DNA of 63,655 nt, filler included, from Sphacelaria rigidula (lineage: Eukaryota), in assembly GCA_964200075.2 (NCBI GenBank). It is 10 parts of 10 records of this genome, joined end to end, with 100 filler letters (N's around TTAATTAATTAA, not from the genome) between each part and the next. Parts side by side here need not be neighbours in the genome. Positions count along the whole stretch, not along the records: positions 1 to 6,276 come from CAXNAA020021058.1; 9 more parts are not named here. One strand, written 5' to 3'. Under the pieces are notes generated by a model that saw nothing but the letters and a program-made list of their open reading frames with translations, did not search any database and had not been told where the DNA came from. Each line of letters begins with the position of its first letter. Positions within the stretch are counted from its first letter, which is position 1. Both the position numbers and the translations under genes were made by a program. Shown here piece after piece: positions 1 to 58,158 of this stretch.

Positions 1-1238
1 GCGGTGCTGCGGCAATAACAGATAGATCCAATTTGAACTTAGGGGGTGTTATTCATCGTTGATTTGCGCCGACCTCCCCAAGCCGGGCGCTTGACCACAC
101 GCCAGTTGAGGGGGGTGTATGAGAGATCAAACACTTGTAGAGACCTTTTTGACATGCGGAGTGAAAAACGATACCCATGGTGGTGACCTAACTGTTGCTA
201 GCGTGGCGCATAGGCAATCTGCAGCACACATACCGTGGTCGCGTGGACAGCTCGGTACAGCACGAGTACCTTCCCATAAGTAATGATTATTCCGATGTCA
301 GGAGGTCATGCATTATTATTACAACGAGCTGGGAGGAGAGACGAGAGTGCTCTACGATCAACCGCATGTAGTTGCATTCCAGACCCGCGCCATCAACCGC
401 CGACAGCAAGGGTGTTGTGGCTTTCACGCGACGCTGTCGGCAGTACGGCAGGCAAATCGGATCATAGTTACCTCCCGTCTGCGCAGTGGTGGTCACGCTA
501 ACTAACTACACCGATTTTGCAAGGCCTGTGAAAGCTAGAGTTCGACTTTTATGAGCAGCATGCACAAAATGAAAACGATTCCCAAAACCTGAGGGAAGGT
601 GGCCACTTCAAGTCCAGTTGAACATCCGAAGAAACTGTCGAACAGCAATACGAAACTTTTCTGGCATCGACATCGGACAGTGCTCGAACAACGGAACATA
701 AATCGACAAGTTACCGTTCGTATTAGAAAACAATGCGCTTGAAACACTTTGCAGCTTCGAAGACACAGATTCTGATGGAAAGAAACTTCTCCGGGCCCCC
801 ATGTGTATTGTACCCGCCTGTAAAAGTCGTTCCTTGTTCATCGATGCCTGGCTGGGAGACAGGAAAGTCATCCTCCCTCCAGTCATTCTGGTACAAAACA
901 CTGTTGATCTTATATTTAGTTTGCTACGATGAGTGAGGTTGCACATCACAGCCGGAGAATGCTTTTGTATTTTAATTTCGAAACCTTTTCGATATTTATG
1001 AAGGTTCCTGAGGTTCGTCCTCTACCAAAAAGTCTATCTTCAATTTTGAAAATAGACTGCTTCGAGCGGAGGGGGGGGGGGGGCATGTGTAGCTATACCC
1101 TGGATAATTGGTCCTGACGGTCCATCAAACAGGACACATACCACCTGACACACTCTCGTCATCCTTCGGTGCGGCGAATTAATCAAAGATAACCCGAGAT
1201 TATCACAACAAGCGACTGGATGTACCGGCGGTGCATAC

Positions 1239-4121
1239 CTTACGAGCATATTGACGGCGACCGATTGCGCTGCGGGTTTGGCGTGTAGATCGCTGCAAGC
1301 CTTTCTCTTCAGGTACGTCAGCGAAATACATTTCGATACCGGGGTTCGACGTCTGGAACGCCCAGGCAATGGCTTTCATTGCTTCCGGTGTAGTGGCGAA
1401 GCAGGCCTTTCGCCAGTGCCGCATCGTCACCAGCGACAGAGAATGCAAACCCAGCTGTTTTCGGTGACGAGGGGACACCAACGGGCCGTGGAGAAAAACA
1501 TATATACGTGGTGGAGGTCTGTCGTGTTCGCTGCACACTGGGTTGTTTCTCGGCGTATGAGCGGGTGGGAGACGCGGTACACGCGTCGTATACCCTCCGG
1601 CAACTAGTTTACAACAATACAAGCGGACTTGACTCGGTGGAGATGTGACATAAATGACCCGCGGCGCACATATGATACAAAAAGAATTTAAACTTCACCC
1701 AATGCCCACTACCGTCCCCATGTAATGCAGACCCGGTTTTGCAGTACCCCGTCTTTCACATTCCATTACTCACGTTCGTAAACTCCTTTGATATTTGTTC
1801 CCCCGTAACGGCATCACTCCCCGTCCTCTCCTGGACCGACGTTATGATCCCAACGTACATGTAAAGCTTGTCGTACGTGTTGCGGGGGGACAGAGTCTCG
1901 CCGACATCGTTTAAAGCTGTTCGAAGGCAGGCAGGTAGCAGCAACGGTTGACGCGGTTATTATTCACCGATGTTCCAGACTCTTCATTCGAAAACATTTC
2001 CTCTTTGACGCAGCTGATGCTGGGCAACAACAATATAAATCTATGAAGACGTCTCTTTGGTCCTTCATATGCCATTCTGTGTTCGCTCGGACGATCCCAA
2101 ACCACTTTGCGTTCGAAGGCGGACAGAGATATAATATTTGCCACACTCGTATGTTGGTCAGAGCACGGTCAGCCGGGAAACAAAACGCCCCGTCTTTTAT
2201 CCAACAGACCGTTCTTGGGCAAAACTTCAGCTGTTCCAAAAATCACCCGCGGCCACCGTAAAACGCAAAGGTGTTTGGAAACGTCTCAACGAGTGCAGCA
2301 ATACAATCGCAGGTGTCAACAATCGCGTACAAGGTTGTTCGTTCGGCCAAAATCAAAAACTGCCACCAGAAAAACGCGAAGGTGTCCTGCAATAATCTTA
2401 AAGGCTGAAGCACAACATTCGAAGGTGTCTGCGTTTGGGCCGTAACCCGACGCATCTAGACCACATAAACAATTCGTGCCAGGTTATTCTTGCCTACCAT
2501 AAGAATCGGCAAGAGAAATGGCGACAGCCGAGCTGTCGATTATGTCGACAAACCGAACAATGTAAGTCCGACTGCATGTTACTTGAGAACTGTAGCGTTG
2601 GAATCTGCTTTGTTTTGTTTTCGTTTCGATTCTGAGAATTGAATGAAAGGTCTGAACAAAATGCGCCCAAACACGTCCCGTCGAGGACGATCGTCCACTG
2701 CCCCCCCCCCTCTCGCCGCCACTTTTTCGCACAGGGCCCAGAGAGAAGGGTGAAAATTATGAATGGCAAAATGTTTGGACCAATCACAGCCTTGTCATGC
2801 ACAAAAATGCGAGAAGGGCCCACCATATCGGGATCAACAAAAGAAGCGAGAAACGGAACATATTGCTGCCTTTTGTCAGAGAAAAACGGCCGTAAAACAC
2901 TATCGCAGAACAAAGAATAGAAGTTGGGGACTTTCGGGAAAACATCGCAGATTTGTCGCAAGGCTCGCAGATATTTCCCGCAGGCACGACATTGGGTGTG
3001 TGAGACGCACGAAATCTCGCTGACAAATATATGTATGCAAAACAACAACCAGAAGCACCCAGGCGCCGAAGCAAAGATATATGTGCCGGCGTACTCGTGT
3101 CTGCGAAGTGCAGGGCCATACTGTTTTTTTAGAGCCCGAAAAAGAGAAAAGGCGCATAGAAATGTTTGAGGCGCCATTTTCCTCTCTTTAGGGGCTGAAA
3201 AAGAAGAAAGGCACACAAAAAAAGGGCGCAAAAAAATAACAAAAATGCGCCGAAAACGAAACAAAAAAGGCGAAAAGCATGAAAACAGTACCCGAAAAAC
3301 ACGAGGAAAAGTAGTCAAGGATCCAAAGTCTACACCTCAGGCACACGCGAACCGTCGTTTGAATCATAGACCCGCGGACGAGCCGTGTTAGAAGCCGAGC
3401 CTGAATTCTTGGCGCTAAACTAGTGTGCAGTCACAACAACCCCCCCCACCCCAAGTAGATCAGTCGTGACATCCCTGGCCGGTACAGGCGGAGAACGGGG
3501 TTCTCATCCTCATGCACAGCGTACACGTTCAACCCCGACACGTTTCTTTCTACATGCTTAAACCCTATGACCTAATCATTACGTTGGCATATTTTAAACA
3601 CTAGGCCGTGCGACAATCGTTTACCTTGCATCAGATAGTTCAATGCTCTCGAAACGACTGCGGAGGAACGTGGCTACAGACAATACCATCGGTCAATATT
3701 CTGACTCACCGTCGCCAAGGATTTGCGTGACCTCTGGCCCGAACTCATGGTACACTCGACACGGCACGCTGTGATCTTGCTCGAAAATCGATCTCGCCGC
3801 CGACATTCGATGATTTCCGTCCAAGACGCGAATCTCGCACGTCGAGAGAAACTCCGACGTTATTCCTACATTCTCGGGGACACCTTCATGCGGCATCACT
3901 ATGGCTGGCGGATTGTGCGTGAGCCACCCCTTTGACTTCAACGAAGTGATGATCTTCTCCACTCCACGAGGGTTCAGCTCGCCGGTGAGGGACGTCACGG
4001 CGATTTGAGATAAATTTATCGGAAACGTACCTACTTAGTGGCTGGTGAGAAGGGTTTCCATGTTCCGCTGTACTGGCGCTACTGTCCCTGACGGCTGACT
4101 TCTGACATCAGGGGAATCCAT
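1239..4121 (-). pseudogene. Spliced ParB/Sulfiredoxin-like N-terminal domain + HTH gene; exons 4121-3710, 1916-1774, 1454-1239; one in-frame stop, probably continues degenerate toward position 1
   Basis: Exon 1 reads MDSP...SH*VGTFPINLSQIAVTSLTGELNPRGVEKIITSLKSKGW...IRVLDGNHRMSAARSIF...VPCRVY...ILGD (ParB-type DGxHR motif). Donors gtgagt, gtgagt and gtatgc with cag acceptors join in phase to ALNDVGETLSPRNTYDKL...EQISKEFTN|LGLHSLSLVTMRHWRKAC (HTH-like). TAA at 4035-4037. Confidence 0.6.
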
Positions 4122-4448
4122 TAGGCTGAAACAAAGGTTACCTGCTTCCTCACTGTTGTGGTATGCGGGCTGCAGTCGGCGGTGCAGTGGGTTGTGTAAG
4201 GCAGGGGGGAGGTGGGGTGAAGGGTGGTAGAGCGAGAGACGGCGAGAACGTTCTAATATCGCGGTTAGATGCAGGTCACGATTGGGATACGTTGCCTACC
4301 TTTATCCACAGCGTCACCTGTACTCGGAATTCGACAACATATCTGGGTCATATCAGTCTCGCATGAGTACTACTAAGCCATATTCTTCGATAATATCTTA
4401 CTTAGTAGCTAGTACGACGGTGTCCTTCTTACGAGCTCCATTTTCCGT

Positions 4449-5262
4449 AGGGTGGTGACCCACTTGCCGCGTGTCAGGTGCCATACCACTGACACAATCC
4501 CACCAGTCAGGCAGGTGAAAAGACCTAAAGATTCCAAAATTTGTCGACATGTGTCCTATTCTCTGATCACGCTTCGGCTGCACATGGTCAGTTGTACACA
4601 GGACCACAGGATATTTGTCCCGACATTCTGACGGTCAGGGCATGTTGATTTGTGGCGTCGAAAAGATTGATCTAAACGTGGAACAACACCAACGTCGTCC
4701 TTGCTGTCCAAACATGACCACCCCGCCGACGCTGTCACAAACGTACTGACATCGCCTACTCTCAAACACTCACTTACCAGAGGAATTAGTGTGGGGCGTA
4801 CGTTCATACCGATTACAGAGGCGGGCCGCCTCCTGTTCGCGACATACGGGTGGCTTGACTCCAAAAAGAAGGTAAGAGCAATCCCCTCTCGAGTCGATCG
4901 TGCCGGTGACGGGTGCTATTCCCTCCACACAGCCTATTGCGCTGCAAGATATGTTTGCATCGAGTTTCGAGTGCTGTCGCAGTCCACGCTGTGTTGAACG
5001 GTTCGTTGAAAAGACGCTTGATGCTCAGAGGTTGGCGTCGGAGCAAGAGGACCTCAGTCGTGTCGTCGCGCGCAGAGCAAGACTGGCTTGGGTTCGAGAG
5101 CACGTGCCGTGTCAGAAACCCGGTAAAAACATGGGGTCAATGTATGCTTCTGACGACGTGGTGTGTAATCGGTTCTTCACAAGAGTGTTTGCTGTGTCGA
5201 AGAACCTCGTTGAGGACGCCAAGAGGAACCCGGGTGCTCCATCGGTATTGAGAACCATGTGA
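4449..5262 (+). pseudogene. Degenerate ORF resembling the Cys-rich N-terminus of a DNA transposase (Sola-like)
   Basis: FECCRSPRCVERF...QRLA...VVCNRFFTRVFAVSKNLV matches the CC..C / VC..FF..VF.VS pattern I recall from Sola-type transposase N-termini. Upstream zinc-finger-like ICRHVSYSLITLRLHMVSC. Stops and a frameshift are present and no catalytic core is visible. Confidence 0.35.
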
Positions 5263-6276
5263 GTATCTTATATCTCGTCGCCAAGTTTGAGCAGATGTGT
5301 GACTCTCGCTGTCGTGTAGCAAAGCGAACATATTATGTAGATTTCAAACAATATACGGCGGTACTATACTAGGCAAGCTCCACGTAAAAATAGACCGAAA
5401 ATGTGTGTTACCACAGCCTGCTGTGACCGTGCTTTACTGTAGCGCCGGCCGACACATACCGGCTTACTGTTTCTTGCCGTCGAACCCAGCGAAAACATTC
5501 AACATGTGTGACTGAATTGGTCCGCAGTAGGCTTCGGACGGGTGTGAAGTCGTGAGGGCGCACCCAGGAACAGCCGGTTGTTGCTGTTGCTGTTGTTCTT
5601 CTTGTTGTCTTCACATTAAAAAGTCGTTCCGGTATCTGCGCAGTGCTGTACTGGGCATCTGACTCGGACGTCTTCCGTGGTCACAGGCTACCACCCCATG
5701 TTAGAGTAAAAGGAAAATCAACCGGTACAGGTTTGAATCTTGAATCGATTACTGTATCCAGTTCTATTACTGTTTTGCGGCCGTGGTCCGCCTCGAAACC
5801 GTTTCACCGGCTGACAGTCCAGGAACATTGACGATTTTCCAGAGGGCAGGGGAGTTCGACGAACAGCCGGAGAGCTCAAGAAGTCAACCATTTGTTTTTG
5901 GAAGTAAAGACTCCGCTCGCAGTCTTTCGGGTCTACCTGACCTTCTCGCGTTGCCAGCATAGCTTCACATTATTTGTAGTGTTGTTGTGAAACACGAAGC
6001 GGAGACATCAGCAGCGTGCATGTAACCACGGAAACTGAAAGGTGCTCGTCGAAGACATACTGTTACATACTGTACTGACTTTGCATGCGCTTGACTACGG
6101 GCTCGAAACCGGTCAGGGACTTTCCTGTACTGCTGTCTATTCATATGAGTCATCCTACGATAGGGGTGGGGGTATTTCGGGCCATTTGTTGCTCGAAATT
6201 TCGAGTCAGATTGTCGTTGAAAGCAGCAACGACTGTTCGAACAAGCGTGTTGTGGATCAATAACGCTCATCCATAC

Positions 6277-6376
6277 NNNNNNNNNNNNNNNNNNNNNNNN
6301 NNNNNNNNNNNNNNNNNNNNTTAATTAATTAANNNNNNNNNNNNNNNNNNNNNNNNNNNNNNNNNNNNNNNNNNNN
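6277..6376. other. Artificial contig spacer (also 12653-12752, 19029-19128, 25405-25504, 31781-31880, 38156-38255, 44531-44630, 50906-51005, 57281-57380)
   Basis: Identical N44-ttaattaattaa-N44 (stops in all six frames) nine times, separating pieces of 6276 or 6275 bp. Confidence 0.97.
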
Positions 6377-6445
6377 GATCAGGCGCTGTATGACCATTTT
6401 TTTCGTGACACTTTTAGCTGTTTTTGGGGGGGGCTATCGTAGAAA

Positions 6446-7020
6446 GTGTCGGCCGCCGTCAACCAGTTCGATGTTCCTCGGTGCTTCCGCATCGACAACG
6501 ACGGTGAATTCCGTTCGCAAGACTTCATCGATCTCTGTGACGAGGTGCGGATTCGCCGCGAGTATACAGCGCCCGATATCCCGAAGCACAACGCTGTAGC
6601 CGAGAGCGCAATCTGGCGCATGATGAAGGCTGGCCATGCTGCGCGATGTGAAGCTTCGCGCCTCTTCCCCGCTAAAGACTTCATGGATATCCCCGGACTC
6701 GGTGGCACCTTGGATAGACTCTGGTTGGAGTCCGCGGTCTGGGCCACGGATGGCTTCAACCGCTCCGTCGCGATGGCTAACCTCGGGAAGGTCCCGCCGT
6801 ACCAGGTTTTCACCGGCCGTACCCCTCCTCTTCGGATCGTTCCCTCCCTTCGACCTGGGATGATGAAGGTCACACGACGCTCCAAGATGGATCCGCAAGC
6901 TGTCAAGTGCTACTATCTCAACAACGGCTGCAACCATTCACCGTCAACCGTCAAGATCGTCAAAGCCTCAACCGGCTCCGTCTGTTATACCAACAACGTG
7001 GTCTGGACAGTGCCCCGTCT
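6446..7020 (+). pseudogene. Copia integrase core
   Basis: D(N)xGEF...NAVAE motif, LW..AV, SKMDPQAVKC (ORF 6446..7564). Confidence 0.88.
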
Positions 7021-7084
7021 ACCACTCCAACCATCAGCGCCGCTCGACGGAAGGAGGGGGCAACGCGGCAACACTGAGACTTCA

Positions 7085-7710
7085 GCTTCCGCCGCCGCCG
7101 CCGCCGCCAACTTGCCGCCGCACCACCATGCCGCTCCACCATCACATCATCCCGCTCCCGCTGTCGCCACCAAACCATGCTCCCTCGCAACCACATGCTT
7201 CCGCTGCCGCCGTCAACCGCTCCACTGTCACATCATCCCGCACCCACCGCCGCCGTCTACAACCCGCCGCCGCCACCAAACCATGCTCCCCGCAATCACA
7301 AGCCGCCGCTCCCGCCGCCAACTTGGGCCGCGCCGCAATGCTGCTTCACCATCACATCATCCCGCACCCGCCGCCGCCGTCTACAATCCGCCGCCGCCGC
7401 CGCGAAACCATGCCCCCTCACAATCGCAACCAAATGCCGCCCCTGCCGCCGCCAACTTGCCGCCGCGCCGCCATACTGCGCCACCATCACATCATCCCGC
7501 ACCCGCCGCCGCCGTCTACAACCCGTCGCCGCCGCGAAACCATGCCCACTCACAACCGCATTAACATGCCGCCGCCACCGCCAACTTGCCGCCGCGCCGC
7601 CATGCTGCTCAGCCATCACATCATATCGCACCCGCCGCCGCCCCGAAACCAAACTATTCCGCTACCGCGATCACATGCCGCCGCCGCCAACTTGCCGCCG
7701 CTGCCACACC
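7085..7710 (+). repeat. Imperfect GC-rich tandem repeat in the copia INT-RT linker (Pro/His/Ala-rich)
   Basis: Recurrent gccgccaacttgccgccgc / ccatcacatcatcccgcacccgccgccg / aaaccatgc blocks; translates as repeated AANLPP..HAAPPSHHPAPAAAVYNPPPP. Confidence 0.85.
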
Positions 7711-57900: not shown

Positions 57901-58158
57901 GAGTGATGCTGCGATAGGGTCATCACTTTCACGGCTTGGGAGTAGGATTTTCAGGAACCCTTTATCTCATCGAAAACACGACTTTCGAAATAGGTGAGAG
58001 TACGCCAGGGATTTTGTTCCAATTTGCTAGGGACACCCCGAATGAATTTGCAAACGGGGATATCCTGACCCATATTCTTGTGTAGTTCCTAATTTTACGA
58101 ACCCCTTAATCAGGCCGGTTTTGGCCCCAAAATTGCAGACCCTATCGCAGCATCACTC
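57901..58158. mobile_element. 258-bp MITE, perfect 21-bp TIR, 4-bp TSD (Sola-like)
   Basis: ttat|gagtgatgctgcgatagggtc ... gaccctatcgcagcatcactc|ttat. Confidence 0.9.

Follow-up and report, generated by a model that had tools for sequence, protein, structure and literature searches.

What kind of mobile element places a ParB-like gene head to head with a transposase gene, and what might the ParB-like protein do for it? This question was raised by the first contig in a 63,655 nt stretch of DNA from the brown alga Sphacelaria rigidula (GCA_964200075.2), here called the window. The window consists of concatenated contigs of about 6.3 kb each, separated by N44-TTAATTAATTAA-N44 spacers at 6277-6376 and at eight further places, and since the spacers divide separate contigs, features on different segments are not neighbours. 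Bases 1-6276 represent one complete contig (C21058) of the assembly searched (G000; 244 Mb, 27,214 contigs). Positions 876-6146 were colinear with other copies at 73-94% DNA identity, and those copies extend by more than 5 kb on either side. This segment is very probably a decayed internal fragment of a Sola1-type cut-and-paste transposon of about 20 kb, and the features that it contains are as follows.

876..6146, no strand: internal fragment of the very probable Sola1-type DNA transposon (~20 kb), both terminal inverted repeats (TIRs) lying off the contig; from colinearity with other copies
4806..5258, plus strand: transposase coding exon 1, Cys-containing N-terminal region; 35-52% amino acid (aa) identity across subfamilies
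3710..4121, minus strand: accessory gene exon 1, ParB/Srx-like domain with DGNHR motif; at least 42 matches in G000, donor GT at 3709
1917..3709, minus strand: accessory intron 1, 1793 bp with GT..AG ends; 1916 is joined to 3710 in contigs of runs X2 and X3
1774..1916, minus strand: accessory exon 2, helical part following the ParB domain; 31-67% aa identity to diverged subfamilies
1239..1454, minus strand: accessory exon 3, helix-turn-helix (HTH)-like region with a 5-bp deletion near 1332; from comparison with other copies
4778..4805, minus strand: accessory gene, weak candidate for a 5′ untranslated exon; one X2 contig, GTAAGT donor at 4777

The ATG of the ParB-like gene (4119-4121, minus strand) is located 328 bp from position 4449, where the original prediction had opened a Cys-rich open reading frame (4449-5262), and 685 bp from the conserved transposase start at approximately 4806. 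A Cys-containing frame is indeed present in this region, but it is not a single open reading frame, as there are 6-9 stops per frame; the coding part conserved between subfamilies opens with MP(I/V/L)T(E/D)AGRLLF near 4806 and stops at the donor at 5259. Both genes are disabled in the window, as had been proposed: besides the deletion in accessory exon 3, the ParB exon has a premature TAA (4035-4037), and the transposase exon starts with ATA (4806-4808) and has a 41-44-bp deletion at 4843, with all 16 aligned copies lacking the premature stop, having an ATG start and differing at the deletion.

The ParB exon is not a single-copy host locus, since it had at least 42 matches in G000, the closest with 71-89% identity and others down to 32%. 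We fetched 32 of the 40 other ParB-bearing contigs, and found the transposase exon divergent from the ParB exon in 27 of these, including subfamilies at 32-50% protein identity, with 0.5-1.4 kb between the two exons and 4 kb in one interrupted copy. The pairing of the two genes is far beyond chance, and the divergent layout that the original prediction suggested looking for does recur elsewhere in the genome. Exons of both genes align between subfamilies at approximately 30-65% aa identity, while the introns there do not align. The association is old (the subfamilies are near synonymous saturation) and abundant, and appears to be spliced in some copies. At L061:266-607, a ParB exon has 7.7 kb of upstream sequence without a transposase exon; this may be a rearranged copy, or a ParB gene on another carrier. 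An abundant internally deleted derivative (L036, L087, L088, L090 and about 12 more contigs) joins window position ~1946 to ~4141-4300 and is without parts of both genes; such derivatives are probably mobilised in trans.

In other copies, the transposase gene continues several kb further to the right, where a DDD-type catalytic core is found in the same orientation as exon 1, and the downstream exons match DUF7869 (E 6e-19 and 2e-19). The profile check that had been proposed for the plus-strand gene found transposase similarity. The prediction of a large DNA transposon that combines two genes, one for a Sola-like transposase and one of ParB type, holds, with both genes multicopy and linked. 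Three Asp motifs (QAD, QxDN and GHTHIxIDQVFS) are conserved across subfamilies, and we take QAD, QxDN and GHTHIxID to be the Sola DDD triad. The core exon had a dN/dS (ratio of non-synonymous to synonymous substitution rates) of 0.08 in the one pair compared. In the last transposase exon (L051:1955-2566), a beta-rich C-terminal segment (GDFVFF..FLVG..VRWW) is conserved; it gave no Pfam match and might, speculatively, be a Tudor-like reader. Sola diagnostics were not found in the accessible parts of PMC4455052 and PMC5751038.

The termini and catalytic core had been noted as missing from the window, and walking outwards through other copies led to ends that these have in common, with AACAG at the left and CTGTT at the right. 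The TIRs are 646-706 bp in length (~680 bp), and left ends are 85-93% identical to right ends when different copies are compared. With nested inserts counted, the composite element is about 21 kb long. The terminal 24-mer had 1163 matches in the genome at up to 2 mismatches (control 0). We sampled 79 distinct end flanks, and found C at position -5 in 42, A at -4 in 53, W at -3 in 55, W at -2 in 56 and T at -1 in 46 of these. The palindromic symmetry distance of the 79 flanks was 0.10 at 4 bp, versus 0.25-0.39 at 2, 3 and 5-10 bp, and the base following the site was G in 11/19 empty sites. A 4-bp AWWT target is the best fit to these flanks, and in 2009 Bao reportedly described an AWWT target preference for Sola1. 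Sixteen of the 79 sampled ends belong to a related family, with the TIR common only over the first ~48 bp. This second family (L174, L176, L177, L192 and others) is alike in that part, often starts with AACAAC, and then diverges. Ends of the element or of a short relative were also seen inserted into further copies, belonging to the same family or to sister families (L050:7772, L073:7345, L150 and L166), and window position ~4391 corresponds to the empty site of the L050 insertion.

The element had been put forward as undescribed, a claim that does not stand, as Sola1-1_Ec32 of Ectocarpus sp. 7 already has such an architecture. The accessible parts of Dinatale et al. 2025 (PMC12477816), to which all statements on Ec32 here are limited, describe it as a 21,549 bp element with AACCG-CGGTT termini, a 282-bp TIR and a 4-bp target-site duplication (TSD) that tends to have A as its last base, carrying a gene for a 1104-aa ParB and methyltransferase protein on the strand opposite to the transposase. 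The Sphacelaria element resembles it in size (~20-21 kb), AAC-G termini, long imperfect TIRs, a probable 4-bp target, a ParB-like and methyltransferase-like accessory gene opposite the transposase, nested insertions and pseudogenised copies; being >10 kb with such a gene opposite the transposase, it belongs with giant elements of the Sola1-1_Ec32 type. It differs in its termini (AACAG rather than AACCG) and in TIR length (~680 rather than 282 bp), and consists of several diverged subfamilies with about 580 insertions at most, short relatives counted in, compared to one family with two intact copies in Ec32. Finally, the methyltransferase motifs are missing here, whereas activity is predicted for Ec32, which we compared by its published description.

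The accessory gene on the minus strand has about ten exons, as derived from other copies. These encode, in order, the ParB domain, an HTH-like region, a zinc finger, a domain resembling beta-class methyltransferases and a conserved C-terminal domain, with the exons for the latter three located off this contig and present in other copies. Runs X1-X4 are presumed to be RNA and come from one study, and the X2 and X3 contigs that join 1916 to 3710 represent related copies at ≥85%; this join was not present in X1 or X5 contigs. It suggests that some copies of the element are spliced, and has no bearing on the window copy. A loose end in X2 at 1774 continues into accessory exon 3. Furthermore, one X2 contig joins 4144 to 4778 on the minus strand with GT..AG ends (27 letters on its short side), and the 5′ exon of the ParB gene may therefore reach the transposase start, with both transcripts overlapping at their 5′ ends.

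With a profile built from 12 ParB exons, 164 relatives were detected among 1.84 billion proteins (E up to 0.001); of the ten that were looked up six were named, all from brown algae. In the DGxHR motif, the D and G are invariant and the H and R are conserved at ≥90% (58 homologues). Structure and feature rows of the Atlas link the N-terminal part of the homologue P0001 to ParB_N and Spo0J clusters (TM scores 0.57-0.68), with the ParB_N rows at 0.57-0.58 reaching the bar for naming and the first row being a cluster of viral ParB and methyltransferase proteins; P0001 shares 90% identity with the window exon, may not be independent of G000, and has a model with a pLDDT (predicted model confidence) of 0.60. 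A ParB N-terminal fold with a GxxR nucleotide-binding motif thus appears to be present, judging from motif and modelled structure. Within one left arm, the initial 1.25 kb contained no repeated 10-mer array resembling parS. ParB relatives in viral contigs gave 28 pattern matches, none of which were confirmed, and a tblastn search of phages gave no match. A DUF3723/Starship lead (E 0.21) was dropped, as it was absent on longer homologues.

The next domain can be aligned over 183 columns to beta-class N6/N4 methyltransferases, at 95% in hhalign and with an E of 3.9e-8, compared to 0.38 for the reversed control. Atlas features gave 0.92 for the homologue P0035, with PF01555 alone in 24/30 Atlas hits. 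The beta-class N6A/N4C fold and motif order (IV before I) appear to be kept, fold assignments in this work resting on profiles and the Atlas. The catalytic motifs of this class are replaced. Motif IV ([DNS]PP[YFW]) is present in 25/32 reference enzymes, and was absent from all 50 exon loci (out of 61 matches, at 48 distinct places) and from three other brown-algal homologues (P0035, P0163 and P0164), the region reading (V/I)(S/A)(L/I)D(A/V)E in most copies. The S-adenosylmethionine (SAM)-binding loop of motif I, DPFxGSG, has become G(V/I)G(L/V/M)E(S/R/Q) or MHAES, with DPFxGxG replaced in 40/40 exon rows (some of them duplicate loci) and in the same three homologues, while the acidic residue after strand 2 is replaced by Phe (GIE to ELF). 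The methyltransferase-like exons had a dN/dS of 0.11-0.39 in five between-subfamily pairs and 0.28 in one of two within-subfamily pairs. As the loss is common to subfamilies and homologues, and the domain is under purifying selection, the loss of catalytic motifs is old and shared and does not represent decay after insertion. The domain is probably a pseudo-enzyme which binds DNA without methylating it, and is probably inactive across brown algae. This loss of motifs under purifying selection is the new finding, as the architecture itself was published in 2025; an incomplete literature search found no paper describing motif loss in this accessory protein.

The C-terminal domain (L086:6471-6977; residues ~430-610 of P0163) is common to G000 and the Ectocarpus proteins P0163 and P0164, and matches no family tested. 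Its appearance by eye as a degenerate SET domain was not supported (hhalign 0.1%, E 0.46-0.9), although the SET profile, consisting of 18 motif-selected viral proteins of which two are doubtful, is weak and gives no firm exclusion. Reference SET genes numbered 0 in 5 viral records.

We consider it probable that this is a Sola1-type element like Sola1-1_Ec32, in which the accessory protein is a non-methylating helper that binds the element. The transposase would pair the TIRs, excise the element and insert it with a 4-base stagger at C-AWWT-G sites, and would mobilise deleted copies in trans. Cut-and-paste transposition at these sites is proposed because of the anatomy of the element and because this mode is established for DDE/D elements. 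In the accessory protein, the ParB part would keep its nucleotide-binding motif and the methyltransferase fold would serve as a DNA- or protein-binding module, and the protein may aid its own element, either through juxtaposition of the distant ends or by counteracting silencing by the host. A more specific version is rather doubtful, in which giant Sola elements of brown algae encode a prokaryote-derived, nucleotide-gated ParB clamp with a dead methyltransferase fold, which would load and slide on the DNA of the element, and either condense or synapse ends 20 kb apart or shield it from silencing via histone H3 lysine 79 methylation (H3K79me) or small RNAs. If true, a transposon of eukaryotes would be making use of a ParB clamp in cis, which would account for the continued transposition of elements of this length in a lineage without DNA methylation.

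Several results weigh against parts of this interpretation. The transposase exon was missing from 5/32 contigs, of which L042 and L045 are without it through an internal deletion and L070 has only 1.2 kb of room, while L054 and L061 are unexplained, the latter with 7.7 kb of room. There was no paired TSD among the 79 ends, with three pattern searches for partner ends giving 0, 0 and 1 match, the latter a chance match without TIR, and no copy was found with both ends on one contig; the length is therefore composite and the TSD indirect, the paired TSD not being recovered because most ends sit at contig breaks. The link between DUF7869 and Sola is presumed, and the single-exon homologue searches gave no match. 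Pfam and PHROGs gave no significant match for either the ParB part (the PHROG ParB match having an E of only 0.44) or the methyltransferase-like part, a plain hidden Markov model of 32 methyltransferases gave the real proteins scores that were no higher than for a reversed one, and profile searches with PDB sequences gave 0 matches and 7 weak, irrelevant ones. A PF01555 search of G000 gave no match with the control positive in 13/14 genomes, in a search that introns weaken, and the motif IV register sits in a low-confidence part of the global alignment. The second within-subfamily pair had a dN/dS of 0.78, and all dN/dS values are from single pairs, some near saturation. Finally, the role as a helper is inferred.

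The accessory protein could instead be an active enzyme despite its atypical motifs, marking its own copies by N6-adenine or N4-cytosine methylation, in line with Dinatale et al., who predict 4mC or 6mA (N4-methylcytosine or N6-methyladenine) methylation and raise the idea of self-methylation. The kept fold and beta-class motif order, the purifying selection and the acidic residue retained in the motif IV region of most copies (VS[LI]D[AV]E) all agree with this, and the red-algal PAG2 has a Pfam-detectable methylase, as given in the accessible part of Petroll et al. (10.1101/2025.02.11.637652). However, PP(Y/F/W), the glycine-rich SAM loop and the strand-2 acidic residue are all replaced, in all subfamilies and in the Ectocarpus and Cladosiphon homologues, which makes activity improbable. 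An inactive domain would shift the proposed mechanism from self-methylation towards binding or scaffolding, and would fit a lineage for which the accessible part of PMC13076208 reports the loss of DNMT1, DNMT3 and DNMT5, and thus of 5-methylcytosine (5mC) methyltransferases. Somewhat less unlikely is that the ParB domain is an enzyme (sulfiredoxin, SerK or nuclease-like NTP chemistry), acting for example on host defence proteins or DNA ends. The DGxHR form is also found in enzymatic ParB/Srx members, and the top Atlas row is the viral ParB and methyltransferase cluster rather than chromosomal ParB; on the other hand, residues 20-254 match Spo0J/ParB partition clusters in the structure rows of the Atlas (TM 0.57-0.65, model pLDDT 0.60), and one of these clusters has HTH_ParB in 93% of its members.

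There is little to recommend the ParB gene as a captured passenger in Pack-MULE style, with no role in the life cycle of the element. Giant Ectocarpus transposons often bear extra genes of unknown function according to the accessible text of Dinatale et al., and a ParB exon without a detected transposase exon is seen in L061 and L054. The multicopy gene nevertheless adjoins the transposase exon in 27/32 tested copies, and keeps its position and orientation down to ~33% aa identity with synonymous sites near saturation, so that a passenger is very improbable. A different DDE/D group for the element (Sola2, Sola3 or a DUF7869 lineage not yet classified) is also highly unlikely. The differences from Ec32 in TIR length and termini could be read in this way, as could flanks ending mostly in T where the Ec32 TSD is biased towards A. 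Against this stand the size, terminal motif, probable 4-bp target and accessory gene, which match Sola1-1_Ec32, whereas the Sola2 element of Ec32 has GGCGG termini and is 4.6 kb long.

Comparable pairings are known from other systems, as described in the accessible parts of the respective papers. The Plavaka (EnSpm) elements of red algae have ParB and methyltransferase accessory genes (PAG2 and PAG3; Petroll et al., 10.1101/2025.02.11.637652). However, their transposase is from another superfamily, and they have ParB fused to a 2-oxoglutarate (2OG) oxygenase and the methyltransferase to SET in separate genes, whereas here ParB and the methyltransferase-like domain are in one gene and SET is not supported. 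The same paper, on Bostrychia, gives VANDAL/VANC anti-silencing in Arabidopsis as the only proven case of such an accessory protein. This is a functional analogy only, with an element-encoded protein acting on its own copies, since VANDAL/VANC has a different superfamily and domains and opposes 5mC, the enzymes for which are absent from brown algae. Fusions of ParB-HTH and methyltransferase have been described, as has an inactive methyltransferase in the DIRS1 retrotransposon (Iyer et al., PMC4738411). Phage fusions of ParB with N6/N4-methyltransferases share the pairing but keep the catalytic motifs, while DIRS1 is a precedent for a transposon-borne methyltransferase kept in an inactive form, although its domain is derived from PCIF1. 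The Sphacelaria system offers a concrete test of the function of a transposon-borne ParB protein in eukaryotes.

The remaining features concern the boundaries of the window copy and its surroundings.

1..875, no strand: unrelated long-inverted-repeat family, with a CCT microhomology junction to the element; its other copies continue past 878
5498..5714, no strand: stretch wholly or partly missing from several copies, with a (TGT/TGC)n run, in the transposase intron; from copy comparison
6147..6276, plus strand: GAG-ended repeat terminus within the transposase intron; 16/19 first bases match the end of the miniature inverted-repeat transposable element (MITE) at 57901
57901..58158, no strand: GAG..CTC MITE with TTAT TSD, on a different contig; no derivative of the large element, its termini differing from AACAG..CTGTT

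Both genes had been described as running towards the contig ends; instead, the unrelated repeat interrupts the element at 875/876, and the end of a different repeat does so at 6147. The 875/876 boundary is a rearrangement junction and not a clean insertion. A clean GAG..CTC insertion at this left junction was ruled out, as other copies of the repeat continue beyond it, and 876 and 6147 as the element termini with a 9-bp AGTCATCCT duplication (Mutator-like) were ruled out as well, as other copies of the element extend both ways. The repeat at 1-875 (also in L214, L215 and L216) has many copies with long internal inverted repeats, and is fold-back-like. At the right-hand boundary, loose ends at 6146/6147 have differing flanks. 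The suggested link between the large element and the MITE at 57901-58158 was not borne out, since their terminal sequences (GAGTGATG versus AACAGCAA) are not shared and the MITE family merely inserts into element copies, as seen at L038, L058 and L071.

Retrotransposon-like frames were seen at two places. In or beside a diverged copy, protease- and integrase-like frames at L055:1053-2369 (minus strand) represent a Gypsy-type remnant. On the next contig of the window, 6443-7564 (plus strand) contains a frame of 373 aa that opens like an integrase (rve, E 0.16), with a Pro/His-rich repeat after this; it is probably the remnant of a long terminal repeat retrotransposon.

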